The notes: generated from the sequence alone by a model not told the origin. A stretch of 16,230 bases of DNA from a virus (IMGVR_UViG_3300045996_004585:65334-81563); one strand, 5' to 3'; counted from the stretch's first letter, positions 1,030 to 13,931 are shown. Made by a program: numbers and translations.

Positions 1030-1040
1030 TAATAGACGAG
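1030..1040 (+). promoter_or_regulatory. Candidate late-promoter motif TAATAG-N-YGAG (copy 1, TAATAGACGAG)
   Basis: One of four intergenic copies; lies 80 nt upstream of the 1121 start. Confidence 0.55.
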
Positions 1041-1120: not shown

Positions 1121-4100
1121 ATGTTCGCCTACAACGTATCCAACGCCAAAGTCGCCGCTGCCGGTGAACTTCTGTGGCTTGTCACACTTGACGACGAGGT
1201 TCTAGTCCAGACTCCGGGAACCCGCACGCCCAATCATGCAGCCCTAGCTAAACAGTTGAAGGGCGCAGAATGGGCGAAAGCCAAGATCATGGCGGGCGAG
1301 CCACTAGGTTTTGGTGGCACTATCGCAGACGGCAAGATCACTTACTCTGGCCTCATGGGTAGCGAGGGCAGTGTGCCCAAGGCGTATGATCCGCACGGCT
1401 CTATAGTCGGCGGCAATCGAGTACGAGAGGCTGTCGAGAAGGTTTACATCCAGGCAGAGCAGATGGGCATCCCGGTTGACCCGAGCTACTCACTCAACGC
1501 TGTTGTCCCCGGCCAAGGTCTTGTTCCTCATGAGCGCGGCCTGATTGGCAAGATCGCCACAAGCGGTTCGTTCTACAACGAAGTCTTGGGCAAAGACGTT
1601 GACTTTTTAGATGATGGCATCCTAGAAGATTTCAGGCATAGCACTCAAGCTTGGTCTGTGTACGACAAGGATACGGGAGACTACTACGAGATTCGTGAAG
1701 ATGGCACTGTCTATGATGCCGAGACAGGTGAGCATGTAGGATCATTCGATGCCTTCGTAGACCCAACATCTCGTGAGCCAGACGATGACCGTGACCTTGA
1801 TTGGTACCCAGACTGGCACGGCGCTAAGAAAGAGGCAATTTCATGGGATTTCCGCGCACCCAAAGTGCCCGCAGACGAAGAGATGCTCAGAGCGTTTGCG
1901 GCTGACGTACAAGGACTGTTGGGTGAAGCCGATTCTGGATTTGTCTACCAGCGAGTTTTGGAGATTACTAAGGGTGACATCCCATGGAACACTACACCGT
2001 GGCACTGGAACCGAGCAGTCAAGCGCGTTGCAGAGCAGGTTGGTTCATTCGATCAGCCTCGCGGCCCGCGTGTAGATGATGGCCCTGCGGGCGACATGCC
2101 GTTCGGATCGCCCTCGTCACCACGTCGCATGACCAACATGCAGAAGGGCGCTCCATATCCGGGGCATCACGACGAGGATAAGAGTCACGACAAGGAACAC
2201 ATCAAGGGCGCACCTGAGAAGGTGAATGAAATCTATCACGCTTGCATGCGTGACGGCGAAGGCGATAAGGAAAAGTGCGCCAAGATCGCATGGAGTACAT
2301 ACAAGAAGATGAAGAAAAAGAAGAGCGAGGTCGAGAAGACAGCGGGCACCTTTGAGTATCTAGCTGCACCTATGGGCATTCACGGGCGCACTGGTGAGGT
2401 CATGGGCGCACTTGGGCTGAGCGCCACTGTTACGCTTCCGCCAAATGGCGACTATCCTGAAGGACTGGTTGCCCAGATTCCTGGACAAGCCATGGATATT
2501 GCATGGTGGGGACTTGACTACGAAGACTGGGAGGCAGAAGGAGTCGTTGTTCAGGTTGAAACTGACGCAGACCCTACTGTTGTTACAGCTATCTTCGACG
2601 CACTAGGTGGTCGAGCGCCCGCAAACTTTGAGAGCCTTGATCCTCAAGTTCAGCAAGCCATTAGCGCTATGGTGGATGTAGGTGCTTTCCAGCCTCAAGC
2701 GTCCTTGCGCTTTGGTAATGACGCAGTAGTCTGCCCCAAGTGTGGTTCACACACCCTTCGAGCTTACGATCAAGGTGCGAACAACATCAAGTGCCTGACG
2801 TGCGGCAACGAGTTCCATCGAGAGCTACTCAAGAATCCTGAAGCCAAGGCTGGCAAGTGGACGGTCGAGGGCATGGGCGGACGCGCACAAGGGCCGAATG
2901 CCCGAGACATAATGCGCAGCGAGATTATCCGAGAGCTTGGGCTTCAACGCATCTCACTTGAGCAAAACGACATGATCAACGCCGCGATTCAACGAGCATC
3001 TATTGAGGTCAACAAGGGCAGCACTGCCCTTCCACATCGTGCCCTACAGTCCGTTACGTGGGGCGCAATCAAGGATTTGGCTGTCAGCTATATGGGCGGC
3101 ACCGGCCTTGAAGCAGGTGATGAAGACGTACTTAACATGTGGCCCGACACTCTTCCGTGGGATGAGGCCGAACAGGACTACTACCGCAACGCTCGTACAG
3201 CCGCAGGCTATGGATTTGATGGCGGCGCTGCTGAGGACTTCACGGAGTTTGAGGATGGCGGCATGGATGAGCAAGAGGAAATCCGTCACATTCAGAAGAT
3301 GGTCAATGACGGCATGTGGGGCATGCAGGGTTCCTATGGTCGCGAGATGATGCGAGCTATTGAGAATGGGCTTGTCGCACTTGGCCCTGATCCTGCTCAA
3401 GATTACTACGGCAACCGCATCCCATCTCGCTTTGAGGTACAGCCCGGAACGAAAGGTTCTGTCGAGTTCGTTAACGAGAATTCACCCTACGGCGTGCTTG
3501 ACCCTGAGAGCGTTGACGAGCCAGGCAGCACCACGCTGGATGATCTGGGCGTGCCACCTGAGGGAGAAGATTACTACAGAGGCGCGAAGGTCGCTGCCGA
3601 AGGCAAGTACAATGCGGGCCAGCGTGTTCAAATCGAGCATCAGTCCCATAAGGGGCAAAGAGGAACCATTGTGGAATACAGCGGAAAGCACGAAGACTTT
3701 GACGAAGAACAGTATAAAATCCTGCTGGACAGCGGGGAAGAGTTAGAGAACGTAAATGAATCGTTCTTCAAGAAGATTAAGTCAGCCAAGAATATGAGAA
3801 ACGAAAACCTGCCAGATTCAACTCAAGAGTACTCGTTAGATACGATGCATATCGCTGCACCGGGATACCCGCTAATGCCGGGTGAAACTCCGCAGATGGA
3901 AGACGAGATGTTGCTTCGGGGTTCTGACCCTTACGCTGGTCGAAGCGCACCTGGGGATTTCGAAGACGAGATGGACATCGCCAACTGCCCCGCCTGTGAT
4001 GGGCCGGGGATGCTGTTGGGCGAAATGGCTGGCCGCGTTCACTATCGCTGCCGTAACTGTGGCCTAGACTTCTCTCACAAGGAAGAGCCTGAAGTTCCAG

Positions 4101-4753
4101 CAGAGGTTCTGCCGCCTGAGCCACCGCCTGCCCCTGTAGCACCTGAGCCACAAGGCCCGCCTGCACCGGGCATGCCTGGGCAGTTCATGGGGCACACAGC
4201 CAAGTGGCAAGATTCTAATGGTCAGCCCCTCTCAGCAGGCGCTTGGTACCGAATGCACCACAAGGGCTACAAGGTGCCCGATGTAGTGAGAATCTTGAAC
4301 CTAGAGGACAACAGAATCGAGGCAGCTATCGACACTGATGTTAAGGGTGCATTCCCGATCATCATCAGCGAGAACCACGAGTACAGCTTTGAGCCAATCA
4401 CCAAGGAAGCAGAATGGCTATCTGATTTGTGGCTAGATGATGACGGTGAGTTTGAGACACCCTTCAACGTGCCGACCGAGATTCCCGAGTGGGAGGGCGA
4501 ACCAACAGAGTTCATCCCCACAGTGGGTATCGCACCTGATGTAATTCCCTTCAGCGAGGAAGAGCAAGAGTACTACCGCAGCGCCTCCAATTGGCGCATC
4601 GCGCGCAGGAAGTTCTCGCCCGCTGAGCAGCGAGCCTTGATCGAAGAAAACGTAGACGGGCGCGCTCGCAATATGGACAAGCTAGACTTAACTGGAACCC
4701 ACTACGAACTAAAGGAAGCAGACCTTGATCCTGACTTCCTGTGGGGTATGTAA
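1121..4753 (+). CDS. Large multi-module protein (1210 aa), probably virion/head-associated. Contains a ChaB-like helix pair, two CxxC..CxxC zinc ribbons, a KOW/SH3-like module and a Pro-rich linker.
   Basis: Start revised to ATG 1121 (RBS GAGGA at 1109-1113). Modules read from the translation: ChaB-like 2207-2324, CPKC..CLTC 2732-2803, GQRVQIEHQSHKGQRGTIVE KOW-like 3602-3778, CPAC..CRNC 3986-4060. It heads the + strand structural operon. Confidence 0.85.
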   Translation: MFAYNVSNAKVAAAGELLWLVTLDDEVLVQTPGTRTPNHAALAKQLKGAEWAKAKIMAGEPLGFGGTIADGKITYSGLMGSEGSVPKAYDPHGSIVGGNRVREAVEKVYIQAEQMGIPVDPSYSLNAVVPGQGLVPHERGLIGKIATSGSFYNEVLGKDVDFLDDGILEDFRHSTQAWSVYDKDTGDYYEIREDGTVYDAETGEHVGSFDAFVDPTSREPDDDRDLDWYPDWHGAKKEAISWDFRAPKVPADEEMLRAFAADVQGLLGEADSGFVYQRVLEITKGDIPWNTTPWHWNRAVKRVAEQVGSFDQPRGPRVDDGPAGDMPFGSPSSPRRMTNMQKGAPYPGHHDEDKSHDKEHIKGAPEKVNEIYHACMRDGEGDKEKCAKIAWSTYKKMKKKKSEVEKTAGTFEYLAAPMGIHGRTGEVMGALGLSATVTLPPNGDYPEGLVAQIPGQAMDIAWWGLDYEDWEAEGVVVQVETDADPTVVTAIFDALGGRAPANFESLDPQVQQAISAMVDVGAFQPQASLRFGNDAVVCPKCGSHTLRAYDQGANNIKCLTCGNEFHRELLKNPEAKAGKWTVEGMGGRAQGPNARDIMRSEIIRELGLQRISLEQNDMINAAIQRASIEVNKGSTALPHRALQSVTWGAIKDLAVSYMGGTGLEAGDEDVLNMWPDTLPWDEAEQDYYRNARTAAGYGFDGGAAEDFTEFEDGGMDEQEEIRHIQKMVNDGMWGMQGSYGREMMRAIENGLVALGPDPAQDYYGNRIPSRFEVQPGTKGSVEFVNENSPYGVLDPESVDEPGSTTLDDLGVPPEGEDYYRGAKVAAEGKYNAGQRVQIEHQSHKGQRGTIVEYSGKHEDFDEEQYKILLDSGEELENVNESFFKKIKSAKNMRNENLPDSTQEYSLDTMHIAAPGYPLMPGETPQMEDEMLLRGSDPYAGRSAPGDFEDEMDIANCPACDGPGMLLGEMAGRVHYRCRNCGLDFSHKEEPEVPAEVLPPEPPPAPVAPEPQGPPAPGMPGQFMGHTAKWQDSNGQPLSAGAWYRMHHKGYKVPDVVRILNLEDNRIEAAIDTDVKGAFPIIISENHEYSFEPITKEAEWLSDLWLDDDGEFETPFNVPTEIPEWEGEPTEFIPTVGIAPDVIPFSEEEQEYYRSASNWRIARRKFSPAEQRALIEENVDGRARNMDKLDLTGTHYELKEADLDPDFLWGM

Positions 4754-5338
4754 ATGATCGTATCACCTAACATTGGCCTAGAGATTTGGGATGGACTGGC
4801 AGATCAGTTCAACCATACCCTCTTGGCGACAAACCTAAGCGACATCGATGCCTATTTCGTCGGCTTCGATAACACAACCAAGCTCGCCAAGCGACTTCGA
4901 ACCAGCGCAACAGTGCCTGGTTCGGGCGTACAGGGCGATCTTGTCTTCTTGACGGCAGCCGTTGCTGACACGTACCCGGCGAACATCATCCTCCGGTATG
5001 ACGGTTCAGCATGGCGTCCCGTCAACCACCTTGAGATTCACGGCTCTATCCCGACATCAGGCAACTTCGCAGGACGAGTCGTAATCCTGTCTGCCGCATC
5101 CGGCAGCTTCGATGCTTGGAGCATCATCCGCTATGACGGTTCCACTTGGGGGCTAGTCGGCGGCTGGTCAGCTATCAACACAGGCGGTGGCGCACTCAAC
5201 ATCCAAGGTCTAGTGCAGACCAAGGATGCATTCATCAACGACGCTAACAGAGGTTTCGTCTTGAAAGACCGAGTTACAGGGCTGAACTACAGGCTCTTCT
5301 TCACAAATGGCAACCTCTCTTATGAGGCGGTGACCTAA
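4754..5338 (+). CDS. Putative fibre/minor structural protein (194 aa) with two ~45-aa tandem repeats
   Basis: N-terminus SPNIGLEIWD...N...ID and C-terminus LKDRVTGLNYRLFFTNGNL resemble phage fibre termini. Repeated IxRYDGSxW motif. Its ATG directly abuts the upstream stop (TAAATG). Confidence 0.6.
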   Translation: MIVSPNIGLEIWDGLADQFNHTLLATNLSDIDAYFVGFDNTTKLAKRLRTSATVPGSGVQGDLVFLTAAVADTYPANIILRYDGSAWRPVNHLEIHGSIPTSGNFAGRVVILSAASGSFDAWSIIRYDGSTWGLVGGWSAINTGGGALNIQGLVQTKDAFINDANRGFVLKDRVTGLNYRLFFTNGNLSYEAVT

Positions 5339-5817
5339 TGGCTTACGTAGGCGATCCTCCGGGAACACTAAAGGCGTATGCAGGTGGATCAGCACCTGCT
5401 GGCTACCTCATGTGCGACGGCTCAGCCGTCAGCCGCTCAACGTACTCTGTGCTTTGGAACACCATTGGCACAGCTTACGGTTCGGGTGATGGTTCAACGA
5501 CCTTCAATCTTCCAGATTTGAGAGGCCGTGTGCCAGTGGGCGTTGGCTCACATACAGACGTTGACTCATTGGGCAAGAATGACGGCTCATCATTGGCTGA
5601 TCGTCGTGTCAAGCACAAGCACACGTCCACACACAACCTAACCGCTCCTTACCCACAATCCACAAACAGAAGTGGTGGCGAAGAGCCGACAGGTAGCTTG
5701 TGGCAGGGCACAGGAAGTAGTACAGGGGTTAACGGTAGTGTCAGTGTTGGCCCGCAGACAAATGTGCCCACAGATGGCCCTGCATTCGTAACTTTCAACT
5801 ACATCATTAAGACGTAG
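5338..5817 (+). CDS. Phage tail-collar domain protein (tail-fibre/microcystin-dependent-protein-like)
   Basis: PPGTLKAYAGGSAPAGYLMCDGSAVSRSTYSVLWNTIGTAYGSGDGSTTFNLPDLRGRVPVG is the classic Collar (PF07484) signature, with the typical C-terminal P...FNYIIK. TAATG overlap with the upstream gene. Confidence 0.92.
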   Translation: MAYVGDPPGTLKAYAGGSAPAGYLMCDGSAVSRSTYSVLWNTIGTAYGSGDGSTTFNLPDLRGRVPVGVGSHTDVDSLGKNDGSSLADRRVKHKHTSTHNLTAPYPQSTNRSGGEEPTGSLWQGTGSSTGVNGSVSVGPQTNVPTDGPAFVTFNYIIKT

Positions 5818-5870: not shown

Positions 5871-6701
5871 ATGATTGAGATTCTAACAGCATCAAAGGAA
5901 CACAGTGAGGATGCAGTTCGCGCTGGTCTTGCCGAGTCACGTCCTGGTTTCAGGATTGAAGCACTTGAGCTAGTAGGCGACGAGTGGAACATCCGCATTT
6001 CCGATGAGGGTGGCTTCCCCTTCAAGAAGAAGGACGAGGATTCCGACTCATCTGAGAAGTCAGAGAAGCCGAAAGATTCCGAAAAGGATGACGATGACAG
6101 CGACGATGACGACAAGAAGGATTCTGATTCCGAGGATAAGGGCGAGAAGAAGGATGACAACTCATCCGTAGAGAAGCTTCGCAGCCTAGTCGAAGAGCTA
6201 CAACAGAAGGTTGAAGAGGTAGTCAACAACGCAGCCGAGGTAGCCGAGGACGCAGATGGCAAGCAGCAGAAGATGGAGGAAATCCACGATTCTGTCAAGG
6301 AGCATGTCAAGGGTGAAGGCGATGGCGAAGGCGAGTTGCCCAAGGGTGACGAGCTAGCTCCGCTACCTGAGGATGGCGTTGGCCTTGAGGACATCGGCCC
6401 GACTCCTGGCGCACCCGCACCGGGTGGCCCGCCTAAGGGTGGCCCGAAGCCTCCGATGCCGCCTGCTGGCCCTGGCGCAAAGCGCCGACCACCGATGGGC
6501 GCACCGGGCGTTTCCACCTTTGGTCGAGCAGTCGTTGCTAATCATCCTGGCGTAGACGAGAAGGGCGAGAAGATCGAGCTTCTTGCTGCTGCATTGCAGA
6601 TCGCTGATGACCCGGAATTCGCAGAGCTTGAACTAGTCGGCATGGTCAAGAACCGTGACGGCAGCTTCTCTGCAAAGTTGCAACCTAGAAACGCAAGCTA
6701 A
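5871..6701 (+). CDS. Acidic, Pro/Gly-rich hypothetical protein (276 aa), likely head-assembly/internal protein
   Basis: RBS AGGAG at 5857-5861. D/E/K/S low-complexity tract, a coiled-coil-like segment (SVEKLRSLVEELQQKVEEVVNN) and a PGGPPKGGPKPPMPP tract. Lies just upstream of the protease-scaffold gene. Confidence 0.8.
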   Translation: MIEILTASKEHSEDAVRAGLAESRPGFRIEALELVGDEWNIRISDEGGFPFKKKDEDSDSSEKSEKPKDSEKDDDDSDDDDKKDSDSEDKGEKKDDNSSVEKLRSLVEELQQKVEEVVNNAAEVAEDADGKQQKMEEIHDSVKEHVKGEGDGEGELPKGDELAPLPEDGVGLEDIGPTPGAPAPGGPPKGGPKPPMPPAGPGAKRRPPMGAPGVSTFGRAVVANHPGVDEKGEKIELLAAALQIADDPEFAELELVGMVKNRDGSFSAKLQPRNAS

Positions 6702-6710
6702 GGAAGCGTC

Positions 6711-6971
6711 ATGGAAGAAGAAAGGCTCTCGTCAAGAGAGGTCGCCGTGCGAGAATTCAATTCGCTACGTGGGCGACTATGTACGGTAATCGAATCAGCG
6801 GGCCTGCCAAAGGTGCAGGAACGCGCGCTGGTAACTCTGATCAAGAATCTAAGCTATCAGCATCAAAAAGTTATTGCGGAACTGCTTGAGCGCCACGAAG
6901 ATGTGATTGAGCAATTGGGTGGCGAAAACCTAGAGTTCCAATACAACGTGAATAAGTTAGTGGAGAAGTAG
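6711..6971 (+). CDS. Small helical hypothetical protein (86 aa)
   Basis: Fills the gap between 6701 and 6973 in operon orientation. AAGGAAG RBS-like sequence upstream; amphipathic helical pattern. Confidence 0.75.
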   Translation: MEEERLSSREVAVREFNSLRGRLCTVIESAGLPKVQERALVTLIKNLSYQHQKVIAELLERHEDVIEQLGGENLEFQYNVNKLVEK

Positions 6972-9320: not shown

Positions 9321-9331
9321 TAATAGTTGAG
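9321..9331 (+). promoter_or_regulatory. Candidate late-promoter motif (copy 2, TAATAGTTGAG)
   Basis: In the intergenic gap before the decoration/capsid genes; overlaps the RBS GAGGGAG. Confidence 0.6.
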
Positions 9332-9347
9332 GGAGACTTTTAAAACT

Positions 9348-9884
9348 ATGATTAGATCAAATAATGCAGCAAGAGTAGGACAGAAGCGCACGATCCGCCC
9401 GCTATACGCATGGCACAGTGCGGTTCCCTACGCTTGCTTCCTAGACGTAACCACTGGTGCGATTGCGGGTACGAAGGCGATTACGTCTTCTGACTACGTA
9501 TTCCCCGGTCAGGTAGCCGTCAAGACGACAGGCGAGCAGATGAGGCTTGCGATTGGTCAGGCAGCGACACCCGCTTTCGGACTATTCAACAACTTCATCG
9601 GCGGCGTCATGGACGAGCTTGGTGGCGGCACGGAAATCGGCGTATGGGTCGGTGGCCGTGATTCAGTATTTGAGGTTCTCAAAGGCCCGAACGCTTCTGA
9701 GACTCCGCTTGCTGATGGTGTAACATGGACTTCGTTGAACGCGACAGTAGGTGGTGTAGCACTCTTCAGTGATGCATCAGGTCGCCTAACGAACACAGCA
9801 GGTACAGGACTACGAGTCGCTCGACTTATTGAAGCCGTAAGCGATAGCAAGATCATCCTACAGCTTGATCTAGCGACGGCATAA
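9348..9884 (+). CDS. Capsid decoration (cement) protein, Bxz1/cluster C-like
   Basis: Start revised to ATG 9348 (RBS GAGGGAG 9329-9335). QKRTIRPLYAWHSAVPYACFLD, VWVGGRDSVFEVL and VARLIEAVSDSKIILQL match my recollection of the decoration protein preceding the MCP in cluster C mycobacteriophages. Position and size fit. Confidence 0.8.
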   Translation: MIRSNNAARVGQKRTIRPLYAWHSAVPYACFLDVTTGAIAGTKAITSSDYVFPGQVAVKTTGEQMRLAIGQAATPAFGLFNNFIGGVMDELGGGTEIGVWVGGRDSVFEVLKGPNASETPLADGVTWTSLNATVGGVALFSDASGRLTNTAGTGLRVARLIEAVSDSKIILQLDLATA

Positions 9885-9899
9885 GGGAGATTGATAAAG

Positions 9900-10868
9900 A
9901 TGTTTGATCCTAACAGAAAGGCCGTCAAGAGCGATGACTTCGTAGCAAAGCTAGCAGGAGTACCAAAGCTTTCTGACGAGCAAAAGACAGCTAAGCTTCA
10001 GCAAATCTGGAACAGTGACAACGACGCTACCAAGCGCGGAGCATTCCGTCGCATCGGTCAGGGTATGATTGGCCCGATTCAGATCAAGTTGAAGTATGAA
10101 GGAATTGGTCGAAACATTCTAGTGGAAGACCCGCTAGAGCGTGGATTCCCGATGCCATATGAGGTTCTTGACGATCTTGGTCAGGCGTACATTCTTAACC
10201 AGACTGACGCCGAAGTCAAGACGACACCCTTCGAAGGCAAGTGGGTTCCGCCGACGCTCTTCCGCATCGCTTCATTCCCGTACATCCGCAAGGAAGACTT
10301 GTACTTCCTACGTGCCAACCTAGTTGAGCATGCGCAGGAGATGACGCGAGAAGCGATTATGAAGCAGGAGGACGGTCGTCTCTTGACCCTTCTCTCAAGC
10401 GCTATCACGGACTACGGCACCAACGCCGACCACGTAATCACCCCTGATCACGTTGTCGAGATTGGCGCAGGTAACCCGCTCGATATCGTAGACTTCTACG
10501 ACGCAGTTTCACGAATCCAGCTTCACGAGTTGGAGGTAAGCCGAGTCCTCTTGAACCCGGTCGATCTTCGTGACTTGTACACCTGGGATGTCAACGTAAC
10601 TGGTTGGAACTTCAAGGATCGCGTTGTTGGTGGAGACACCATCACGCAGTTCGGTGAGTTTACCTTCCAGACGAGCATCATGGTGCCGCAGGGAACGATC
10701 TTCTTGGTTCCAGAGCCGAACTTCCTAGGCGTCATGCCCATCATGTACAGCCTGGACGTGGAAGAGAACAACCAGATCGAGCAGTTCCGTCGAGGTTGGG
10801 TATTCGATGAGCTTATCGGCATGATGGTTCTTAACCCACGCGGTCTAGCAGCTATCAAGAAGGTGTAA
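9900..10868 (+). CDS. Major capsid protein (HK97 fold), Bxz1/cluster C-like
   Basis: Start revised to ATG 9900 (RBS AAGGGAG 9883-9889). GQGMIGPIQIKLKYEG, VLDDLGQAY, TPFEGK, LFRIASFP.I.KEDLY, MYSLDVEE.N and GWVFDELIGMMVLNPRG closely match the Bxz1-type MCP as recalled. Confidence 0.92.
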   Translation: MFDPNRKAVKSDDFVAKLAGVPKLSDEQKTAKLQQIWNSDNDATKRGAFRRIGQGMIGPIQIKLKYEGIGRNILVEDPLERGFPMPYEVLDDLGQAYILNQTDAEVKTTPFEGKWVPPTLFRIASFPYIRKEDLYFLRANLVEHAQEMTREAIMKQEDGRLLTLLSSAITDYGTNADHVITPDHVVEIGAGNPLDIVDFYDAVSRIQLHELEVSRVLLNPVDLRDLYTWDVNVTGWNFKDRVVGGDTITQFGEFTFQTSIMVPQGTIFLVPEPNFLGVMPIMYSLDVEENNQIEQFRRGWVFDELIGMMVLNPRGLAAIKKV

Positions 10869-11432: not shown

Positions 11433-11443
11433 TAATAGTCGAG
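11433..11443 (+). promoter_or_regulatory. Candidate late-promoter motif (copy 3, TAATAGTCGAG)
   Basis: Lies where + strand transcription must restart after the 11136 terminator; 52 nt before ATG 11496. Confidence 0.65.
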
Positions 11444-13020: not shown

Positions 13021-13031
13021 TAATAGGTGAG
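13021..13031 (+). promoter_or_regulatory. Candidate late-promoter motif (copy 4, TAATAGGTGAG)
   Basis: Immediately downstream of the terminator and 54 nt upstream of ATG 13086. Confidence 0.65.
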
Positions 13032-13085: not shown

Positions 13086-13931
13086 ATGCCAACAAATGTA
13101 GACATTAGAGGATTAGACAGGCGCGGCTTCCGTATCAAGAATGCAGGTGGTTCACAAGCTGCCGTCAAGAAGGGCAGCGGCACAGTGTCCGTTGATATTG
13201 ACGACGCCAAGGTGGCGCAGCAGCTAATCCGTAACAAGAGCCAGTGGGTTCGCGCGTCATCTGACAGCGTAACCGTGCGAGGCTTGACGAGTACTAACAC
13301 GGGCGGTTCAGCACAGCCGTTCGCAGGTTTCCGTGGTGGTTCAGCTAACACGCTCACCATCGGTACATCCAACGCGGCAGTAACGTATGCTGCAAAGTCG
13401 AATTCAAGCGGTACGATCAGGGTAGCACATGTCGTCTCTGGTGGTACTGTTGCGCGCTCTATTGTCGTATCCGGCAATGATATCACTGTCAACCCGGCAA
13501 CGACAGCGGGTGCGGTCAACGGATCAGAGACAGCTACGGCAATCGCCGCAGCGGTCAACGCTAATGCTTCAGCTTCTGCCCTTGTAACAGCTACAGCGGG
13601 CGGCACAGGTGCAAGCGTTGTTGTTGCTGGCGCACTCGCCGCCTTGGCTGGTGGCGCTACAGCACGAGTCCGTGCAGGCACTGGCGCAGCGGTCAACATC
13701 GCAGATGCGCAGGAGGCACGTCGCCTTCGCCGCAACCGAGCCAACTTCATCGTAGGCTCTTCTAACCTCATCTCTATCAAGGGTCTTGACGACCGTGGCT
13801 TCCGAGTGAAGAACTCAGGCGGAACGCTCGCAATGGTCAAGCGTGGTGGAGCAGCAGTAACAGTTAACGTGGACGACGGAAACGTACAGCGCGTTCTCCG
13901 CGAACATAACGGACATTGGATCGAGGCGTAA
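13086..13931 (+). CDS. Ala/Gly-rich putative structural protein (281 aa): three ~53-aa repeats with an inserted domain
   Basis: RBS AGAGGA. Repeats share [IV]xGL..(R)GFR. The central insert contains ITVN.AT....TATAIAAAVNANASASALVTA...GTG.......LAGG, which recalls the insertion domains of contractile tail-sheath proteins. Confidence 0.8.
   Translation: MPTNVDIRGLDRRGFRIKNAGGSQAAVKKGSGTVSVDIDDAKVAQQLIRNKSQWVRASSDSVTVRGLTSTNTGGSAQPFAGFRGGSANTLTIGTSNAAVTYAAKSNSSGTIRVAHVVSGGTVARSIVVSGNDITVNPATTAGAVNGSETATAIAAAVNANASASALVTATAGGTGASVVVAGALAALAGGATARVRAGTGAAVNIADAQEARRLRRNRANFIVGSSNLISIKGLDDRGFRVKNSGGTLAMVKRGGAAVTVNVDDGNVQRVLREHNGHWIEA

Follow-up and report, generated by a model that had tools for sequence, protein, structure and literature searches.

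Proteins known or predicted to travel in phage heads for use in the next host include the internal proteins of T4, the N4 virion RNA polymerase, MuF-toxin fusions and the polyvalent proteins. Only for a few model phages is it understood how such cargo finds its way into the head. In T4, IPI-III and Alt bear a capsid-targeting sequence of about 10 N-terminal residues ending in L-x-E, which is trimmed by the prohead protease, of the gp21 type. In the MuF/SPP1 gp7 proteins, a constant N-terminal head-incorporation module is combined with variable toxin domains. Here we analyse P0002, the 1,210-residue product of an open reading frame (ORF) at positions 1121-4753 (+ strand) of the phage sequence IMGVR_UViG_3300045996_004585:65334-81563, and ask how this string of small domains compares with these systems. 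The window, as we call this whole stretch of 16,230 nucleotides (nt), covers the final 16.2 kb of one 81.6-kb contig, which is probably incomplete; the phage is uncultivated.

P0002 resembles the T4 system in that proteins without a structural role would be brought into the prohead by a short, transferable address and trimmed there by the prohead protease. However, the constant unit of P0002 is at the C-terminus, where barrel, linker and tail together take up about 180 residues, and its candidate cleavage site is of the form [KR]-[TS]-A. At its N-terminus P0002 is conserved only as M-x-YAY, and the prohead protease encoded downstream is nearest, weakly, to the S78/XkdF type. In contrast to MuF proteins, the constant part of P0002 is C-terminal and its gene adjoins protease and scaffold genes; no match to Phage_Mu_F (PF04233) was found in P0002 at E-values up to 1. 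The polyvalent proteins of phages and conjugative elements fuse many unrelated domains in variable architectures, and are predicted to be packed into the capsid, processed by a peptidase and active early in the next host (Iyer, Burroughs, Anand, de Souza and Aravind 2017; PMC5512222). P0002 shares with them the union of unrelated small domains in one phage polypeptide and a virion-gene context. However, polyvalent proteins are defined by several domains of disparate, mostly enzymatic activity and often contain a zincin peptidase of their own, whereas no enzymatic domain was detected in P0002; a constant C-terminal barrel and tail was not found among the features described in the parts of the survey consulted (PMC5512222).

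A further parallel is provided by herpesvirus UL26, in which a protease and a scaffold are followed by a cleavage site after alanine and a short C-terminal tail binding the capsid protein (PMC4498786). In pseudorabies virus the cut falls after the alanine of the M-site (VQA-S); 37 residues are lost from the C-terminus, and the scaffold is thereby released from the capsid protein (PMC4498786). The 769-residue protease-scaffold fusion encoded near P0002 has in common with UL26/UL26.5 the protease fold class, the fusion to a scaffold-like region and an x-x-Ala site about 47 residues from the C-terminal tail; in the P0002 family a similar site precedes the tail, and the ending is also similar. The likeness to herpesviruses is an analogy of layout only, with no sequence relationship.

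We are confident that P0002 is a head-module protein of the Bxz1 gp94 family, made of a constant C-terminal unit preceded by variable beads. The family, which is large and unannotated, belongs to the Bxz1/Myrna-type capsid lineage; it includes Bxz1 gp94, ScoobyDoobyDoo gp89 and Skog gp157 and corresponds to PHROGs 2940 and 30974, which P0002 matches with E-values of 6.5e-8 (phrog_2940) and 4.1e-5 (phrog_30974), in both cases C-terminus to C-terminus. A word-indexed search returned eleven relatives of 678-1,233 residues, and BLAST showed that blocks common to relatives stand in a different order, for example in P0010. When the last 191 residues were searched against 1.84 billion representatives, 334 clusters were found at E ≤ 1e-3 and 72 at E ≤ 1e-10; the clusters are at 50% identity, and the family comprises at least 334 of them. 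The members listed range from 186 to 1,982 residues, and with two exceptions (P0046 and P0106) the match extends to the very end of the protein. The tail follows the consensus [KR]-T-A-G-[KR]-x-[FY]-[ST]-P-x-E-Q-R-x-[FL]-I-[DE]-E..G.ARN.DKLDL.GTHY; after a variable stretch of 10-30 residues, most of them acidic, it closes with [DE]-x-F-L-[FW]-G. P0002 carries the family signature [FY]-[ST]-P-x-E-Q-R..ARN.DKLDL.GTHY at its extreme C-terminus.

The presence of each bead was counted among 154 relatives. Only Barrel 2 (150/154) and the tail of about 55 residues (152/154) are constant, while the remaining beads vary and are reordered; the smallest members (186-213 residues) contain little beyond a zinc ribbon, the barrel and the tail. 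The comparison thus shows the gain and loss of modules around a conserved C-terminus for which an earlier note on this DNA had proposed to look. The same note described a string of small modules joined by acidic or Pro-rich linkers, and the AlphaFold2 model (residues 11-1210, built from an alignment of 29 relatives) agrees, the modules being largely independent and the linkers disordered: about ten confident small domains are predicted, and the 481 of 1,200 residues (40%) with a predicted local distance difference test score (pLDDT) below 50 all lie between them, with a mean pLDDT of 65 and a predicted template modelling score of 0.38 overall. Every module that the note listed was recovered where it had been placed.

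The tail is also the C-terminus of Bxz1 gp94, ScoobyDoobyDoo gp89 and Skog gp157, with 57-60% identity over about 40 residues to the latter two (tblastn). It was found in 223 cultured-phage records and the major capsid protein in 229, each count including 209 from Mycobacterium, 9 from Gordonia and 4 from Rhodococcus phages. These cultured-phage proteins share with P0002 the place of the gene and the tail and are similar in length (888-1,277 residues); they are annotated 'hypothetical protein', 'LysM-like endolysin' or 'LysM domain protein'. Outside the tail, in contrast, BLAST finds no similarity to P0002, and Barrel 2 is not detectable by sequence in the cultured phages. Bxz1 gp94 contains a LysM domain (E 7.7e-10), which P0002 lacks. 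A Pfam scan of 51 relatives identified the PEP-utiliser mobile domain in 8, a GNAT domain in 1 and otherwise zinc ribbons. In the close relatives L006 and L007, the PEP-utiliser domain is encoded by a separate upstream gene. The word 'effector' in the earlier note is too strong for P0002 itself, in which no enzymatic domain was detected; some of its relatives bear PEP-utiliser, GNAT or LysM domains.

The P0002 gene evolves faster than any other of the head module. Identity to L006 and L007 is 94% for the capsid protein, approximately 70% for the 86-residue protein, 65% for the cement protein and 52-55% for the protease fusion; for P0002 it is about 40%, over the last third only. Fast evolution suggests a host-facing cargo rather than a structural part, and together with free bead swapping and the cell-wall domains of cultured relatives it leads us to prefer the former.

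As the note had stated, the gene heads the head-assembly operon. It is the first after a strand switch, and lies upstream of the genes for the protease fusion, cement and capsid proteins. The order family gene, ~270-residue protein, ~85-residue protein, protease fusion, cement and capsid protein is kept in L006 and L007, in cluster C phages, and in the more distant L008 (with a 213-residue member) and L009 (with a 1,577-residue member, and a capsid protein only 51% identical); a family gene upstream of the protease fusion, cement and capsid genes is also seen in L001, L002 and L012. Identity of the capsid protein is 52% to its counterparts in Myrna, Catera and Bxz1 (cluster C), Gordonia phage Skog and Rhodococcus phage E3; the Myrna capsid has T=16 symmetry, and gp98 is the homologue of the cement protein (PMC7150772). 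In the 769-residue fusion, the N-terminal ~230 residues are the prohead protease and the rest is long and scaffold-like; it is presumed to be the enzyme that would process P0002.

The gene starts 91 nt downstream of the motif TAATAG-N-YGAG, of which four copies are present on the + strand of the window (1030-1040, 9321-9331, 11433-11443 and 13021-13031) against 0.04 expected. Each copy lies just 5' of a gene group, namely P0002, cement/capsid and two later groups, and the motif is probably a late-promoter element of the phage. Since it stands ahead of both, the P0002 gene is probably co-regulated with the capsid genes. The motif also bears on the start codon. An upstream ATG at 1019 is the start called in database cluster P0001, but this longer version is unlikely: ATG 1121 is preceded by a GAGGAA ribosome-binding site, the resulting N-terminus MFAY... 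agrees with the M-x-YAY starts of homologues, and the motif at 1030-1040 would place 1019 upstream of the likely transcript start.

A short sequence, [KR]-[TS]-A-[AGSK], occurs at four sites in P0002, all within disordered linkers or at bead edges. In the alignment of close homologues, K-T-A or K-S-A is found before ModA, before Barrel 1, after Barrel 1 and before the tail, with K406, K829 and K887-S888 invariant. The 154 family members together contain 56 copies of [KR]TAG, compared with 4.4 in shuffled sequences; 36 of the 56 are located 40-80 residues from the C-terminus and 20 elsewhere. Within this genome, P0002, the protease fusion and the capsid protein hold 8 motif copies against 0.62 expected, an enrichment that is partly circular as the motif was defined after inspecting these proteins. 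The counts free of that circularity are those for a 3,504-residue giant with its three nucleotidyltransferase neighbours (7 copies, 5 of them in the giant, against 1.2 expected) and for the remaining 17,349 residues (2 against 6.2 expected). In relatives that played no part in defining the motif, the family protein, protease fusion and capsid protein account for 5 of 6 copies in L006, 7 of 7 in L007 and 8 of 12 in ScoobyDoobyDoo, which has one further copy 16 residues into the portal; in L009 the family protein and protease fusion account for 5 of 6. The independent evidence is therefore the scarcity elsewhere and these counts in relatives, which also share sites by descent.

The motif recurs at comparable positions in the partners. 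In this phage the protease fusion carries VKTAG 47-50 residues before its C-terminus ...DSDIFL. Of the five uncultivated-phage fusions checked, four contain VKTAG (this phage, L006, L007 and L009), about 45-62 residues from the end, and L008 has VKGAG at the corresponding position, so that sites of this type lie 40-62 residues from the end in the five; all five end in acidic-hydrophobic residues (DSDIFL, DEALFL, DEALYL, IEAVFTL, DSALFSR), to be compared with D-x-F-L-W-G in the P0002 family. Cluster C fusions end in NDSLLFG or NDSLMFG, and their [KR]TAG-type sites are located elsewhere in the protein. The N-terminal arm of the capsid protein has K29-T-A-K at residues 29-32 here and in L006 and L007, and at 33-36 in L008; K29 is invariant in 36 homologues. 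The sequence L-I-E-E in the P0002 tail was considered as a T4-type L-x-E site and set aside, because the protease is not gp21-like in searches and [KR]-[TS]-A covers more sites. The 3,504-residue polyvalent giant (C1:44168-54682), encoded upstream of the window, has five [KR][TS]A[AGSK] sites and might also be cut by this protease. This is only a lead, since none is present in the L006 and L007 counterparts of its neighbours.

We give an even chance to the proposal that P0002 is packaged in the prohead as a tail-anchored cargo string and cut by the prohead protease, on the basis of head-gene synteny, the address-like constant C-terminus and the motif that P0002 shares with the protease-scaffold fusion and the capsid N-arm. 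In this scheme, the constant barrel and tail would act as an address and dock P0002 within the procapsid during assembly, comparable to the way in which scaffolds or prohead proteases bind the capsid protein through their C-terminal tails. The scaffold-fused S78/XkdF-like protease would then cut the string at the [KR]-[TS]-A-[AGSK] sites of its linkers, yielding four to five pieces (bead pieces of approximately 45, 31, 21 and 29 kDa are predicted) and detaching the tail, in parallel with herpesvirus M-site cleavage. After cutting, the pieces would remain in the head, and they may exit with the DNA. Family, architecture, synteny and motif distribution are shown by the analysis, whereas docking, cleavage and delivery are inferred, and we hold delivery of the pieces into the host with lower confidence than packaging and cutting. 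Bxz1 gp95 is reported to carry the peptidoglycan-hydrolase motif mt3 of the TM4 tape measure (PMC1796659); this motif and the LysM domain of Bxz1 gp94 are best understood if pieces are released from the head in the course of infection. A predicted complex of the capsid protein (alignment A5) with Barrel 2-tail (A4) scored 0.00 and counts neither way.

Besides the partial circularity of the motif and the sites shared by descent, several observations weigh against packaging and cutting. The Pfam scan of P0002 recognised only weak zinc ribbons and DUF7417, with no enzymatic domain, toxin domain or embedded peptidase. The site before the tail is weak in P0002 and its closest relatives, which have RSAS or W-K-I-A-R-R in place of KTAG, and the protease fusion matches PF14550 (XkdF-type S78) with an E-value of 0.009, below the cut-off. 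A literature search found no proteomic study of virions that covers Bxz1 gp94/gp95 or the counterparts of these proteins, and the paper on the Myrna cluster C capsid does not mention the gp94/gp95 counterparts (PMC7150772).

P0002 might instead be an accessory scaffold or core that serves assembly only: it would enter by its tail, build or size a large (probably T=16) shell, as the Myrna capsid is (PMC7150772), and be degraded and expelled before or during DNA packaging, with nothing delivered. The gene does adjoin scaffold-like and protease genes, the members of 186-213 residues suggest that the core has a job of its own, and the motif shared with the protease-scaffold fusion would serve degradation equally well. 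We nevertheless consider this unlikely, as a structural helper should be neither the fastest-evolving gene of the module nor free to swap beads, and would have no reason to carry domains of the LysM, GNAT or PEP-utiliser type, or to include a bead whose counterpart elsewhere is a separate early-region gene. A place on the outside of the virion is rather improbable in our view. Hoc has a variable N-terminus and a constant C-terminal anchor, and P0002 could similarly be a decoration protein or a head/neck fibre whose variable string is exposed for adhesion. A point for this, and against internal cargo, is that the genes for a 194-residue fibre-like protein and a tail-collar protein directly follow the family gene here and in L007; in addition, cluster C members carry the cell-wall-binding LysM. 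However, fibre-like genes are missing from that position in cluster C phages and L009, zinc ribbons, KOW/Tudor-like barrels, helical pairs and acidic disorder are not the usual Ig, FN3 or beta-helix folds of surface proteins, and the sharing of the motif with the internal scaffold and the N-arm of the capsid protein speaks for a place inside.

Lastly, P0002 might be a late protein outside the virion, a regulator or chaperone that binds nucleic acid or protein and merely sits in the head operon. In fold searches it came closest to Spt5 KOW arrays, Spt4-type zinc ribbons and Tudor proteins. These matches are generic to small barrels and zinc ribbons, with low template modelling scores and Z at most 6.8, and the strict co-occurrence with one capsid lineage, the fixed place beside the protease-scaffold gene and the constant tail at the extreme C-terminus would go unexplained; we judge this highly improbable.

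The idea of capsid cargo is old, but no description was found of this address unit, of how widely it occurs (in at least 334 clusters and more than 200 cultured phages) or of the candidate cleavage code. We propose, tentatively, that the Bxz1/Myrna capsid lineage, cluster C included, may have an undescribed capsid-loading system. It would combine a portable C-terminal barrel-plus-tail address and interchangeable strings of host-directed domains with a four-residue [KR]-[TS]-A-[AGSK] code, read by the protease-scaffold fusion and also marking the capsid N-arm, the scaffold release site and perhaps the 3,504-residue giant. As the family includes easily grown Mycobacterium smegmatis phages (Bxz1, Myrna), the idea is directly testable. 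If true, two long genes annotated 'hypothetical' or 'LysM-like endolysin' in more than 200 sequenced actinophages would be explained, a rule predicting packaged proteins would make the injected proteome readable from sequence, and the tail would offer a handle for loading foreign proteins into capsids.

Table 1 Features of P0002 and of the downstream head module (window coordinates; aa, amino acids; AF2, AlphaFold2; fractions, relatives with the bead).
Feature	Position	Strand	Evidence or remark
Candidate late-promoter motif TAATAGACGAG	1030..1040	+	91 nt 5' of start codon
P0002, Bxz1 gp94-like family member	1121..4753	+	ORF, 1,210 aa
Bead N1, aa 15-142, alpha/beta	1163..1546	+	pLDDT ~90 or more; 7/154
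Bead N2, beta-rich, aa 147-212, and helical bead, aa 245-310	1559..2050	+	AF2
Helix-pair bead, aa 363-399, two invariant Cys	2207..2317	+	AF2 helices, pLDDT 67-80
Candidate protease site K406-T-A-G, border before ModA	2336..2347	+	K406 invariant, 8 close homologues
Bead ModA, aa 407-521, alpha/beta	2339..2683	+	pLDDT 80-94; 16/154; no recognised family
Zinc ribbon 1, aa 534-570, CPKC...CLTC	2720..2830	+	Weak Pfam zinc-ribbon matches
Helical bead, aa 593-664	2897..3112	+	pLDDT 79-93; 11/154
Candidate protease site R692-T-A-A-G, within disordered linker	3194..3208	+	Motif, AF2
DUF7417-like bead (W..QGSYGR), aa 706-788	3236..3484	+	PF24192, phrog_3908; 0/154
Barrel 1, aa 827-888, KOW/Tudor/SH3-like	3599..3784	+	pLDDT 95; 35/154
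Candidate protease site K887-S-A-K, end of Barrel 1	3779..3790	+	K887, S888 invariant, 8 homologues
Zinc ribbon 2, aa 952-989	3974..4087	+	PF14354 Lar-like, E 1.9e-4; pLDDT 84-93; 23/154
Barrel 2, aa 1027-1095, SH3/Tudor-like, constant core	4199..4405	+	pLDDT 90 or more; VIA Z up to 6.8 (Tudor, KOW, Hfq barrels); 150/154
R1153-S-A-S, position of [KR]TAG in most family members	4577..4588	+	36 of 56 family [KR]TAG sites 40-80 aa from C-terminus
Constant C-terminal tail, aa 1158-1210: FSPAEQRALIEE..ARNMDKLDLTGTHY..DPDFLWGM	4592..4750	+	152/154
Fibre-like protein, 194 aa	4754-5338	+	No family match
Tail-collar-domain protein, 159 aa	5338-5817	+	PF07484, E 1.8e-22
Acidic 276-aa protein	5871-6701	+	No clear family
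86-aa protein	6711-6971	+	No clear family
Prohead protease-scaffold fusion, 769 aa	6973-9282	+	phrog_2774, E 2.6e-60; phrog_18299
Cement protein	9327-9884	+	PF23968
Major capsid protein, 322 aa from ATG 9900	9900-10868	+	phrog_2522, E 1e-88
Two lysins	Further downstream of capsid gene	+	NlpC/P60 and PG-binding domain; GH25

Both barrels are predicted as small five-stranded barrels (pLDDT 90-95). Foldseek matched them with probability 1.0 to Spt5/DSIF KOW domains (8p4e_Z, 8rap_Z), Tudor (2xk0) and YorP (2heq), with PetP as a further match, while VIA gave Z scores of 6.8 to Tudor and 6.1 to KOW and also matched Hfq barrels. The modelled resemblance is one of fold class, not of function, and comes without a sequence family match. 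Stand-alone likenesses of the barrels are YorP and, in Streptomyces phage Coruscant, a KOW protein of 51 residues. When the complete model (1,200 residues) was searched against the PDB, BFVD, AFDB clusters and the ESM Atlas, it returned only generic KOW/Tudor/zinc-ribbon or disordered-protein matches. For N1, ModA and the helical beads, neither the whole-model fold searches nor an ESM Atlas feature search gave an assignable fold: for N1 the latter yielded only unnamed clusters of hypothetical proteins of about 135 residues (score 0.90, a lead only), and for ModA nothing was returned. Among solved structures, sequence searches with the protease domain and with profiles of the tail and the helix pair gave no match, and no bead paralogues were found elsewhere in the same genome.

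The N2 bead was found in 5 of the 154 relatives. The helix pair, a well-conserved module of 45 residues, occurs in 23 and changes position: it may precede or follow Barrel 1, or lie in the interval from Barrel 2 to the tail. The name ChaB-like, given to it in the earlier note, found no support: PF06150 was matched neither by the whole protein at E ≤ 1 nor by 24 copies of the helix pair at E ≤ 10. In zinc ribbon 1 the four Cys residues are invariant in close homologues, and ribbons of this type are seen in 65 of the 154. The bead containing W-x-x-QGSYGR, described in the note as a stand-alone small phage protein, does have such counterparts, being 54-62% identical to stand-alone ORFs in phages MW202722 and OL791268. 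Its match to PF24192 (E 1.5e-4, 21.9 bits) falls below the gathering cut-off of 27, that to phrog_3908 has an E-value of 2.7e-6, and the precomputed database annotation also gives PF24192. In podovirus MW202722 the counterpart is a 101-residue ORF (54% identical) adjoining helix-turn-helix and exonuclease genes; the bead therefore appears to be a small gene of the early/replication region of another phage that has been built into a late head-operon protein.

The genes at 4754-5817, inside the head module, could encode either head or tail fibres. An N-terminal motif of the 194-residue product, P-N-L-x-L-x-I-W-D ... F-N ... L-A-x-N-F ... I-D, is common to two larger paralogues in L008 (L008:2135-4336). 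The capsid gene probably starts at ATG 9900 and not at the listed TTG 9891, since close homologues all start MFDPNRK. The TAATAG-N-YGAG copy at 9321 overlaps TTG 9327, the listed start of the cement gene, so an ATG 21 nt downstream is the more likely start.

Bxz1 gp95 (L012:4689-8798, E 3e-22) and Skog gp158 (L001:10167-13412, E 6e-16) contain a PF25735 domain, which otherwise constitutes gp82, a small protein of mycobacteriophage L5; on this ground the protease-scaffold fusion likewise appears to bear extra beads in this lineage. Upstream of the window, a nucleotidyltransferase-type protein of 1,068 residues (C1:60562-63768) contains, at residues ~748-910, a block of about 130 residues that is approximately 26% identical to blocks of ScoobyDoobyDoo gp89 and Skog gp157 (E 4e-6 to 7e-6). 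This recurrence suggests that the large proteins of these phages draw on a common module pool. The same protein was considered as portal and rejected, because it does not resemble the portals of cluster C phages; inspection of large ORFs on this contig revealed neither a portal nor a terminase. In L007, a protein of 1,354 residues encoded upstream of the family gene (L007:2177-6241) has recorded Pfam marks, weak for Hom_end_hint and faint for Intein_splicing and LAGLIDADG_3. Within the window, the 281-residue product of 13086-13931 (+) has similar segments of about 45 residues at both ends (I-[RK]-G-L-D-x-R-G-F-R-[IV]-K-N-x-G-G ... V-x-V-[DN]-[IV]-D-D), flanking an Ala/Gly/Thr-rich middle; a long ORF that overlaps it on the opposite strand is probably spurious.

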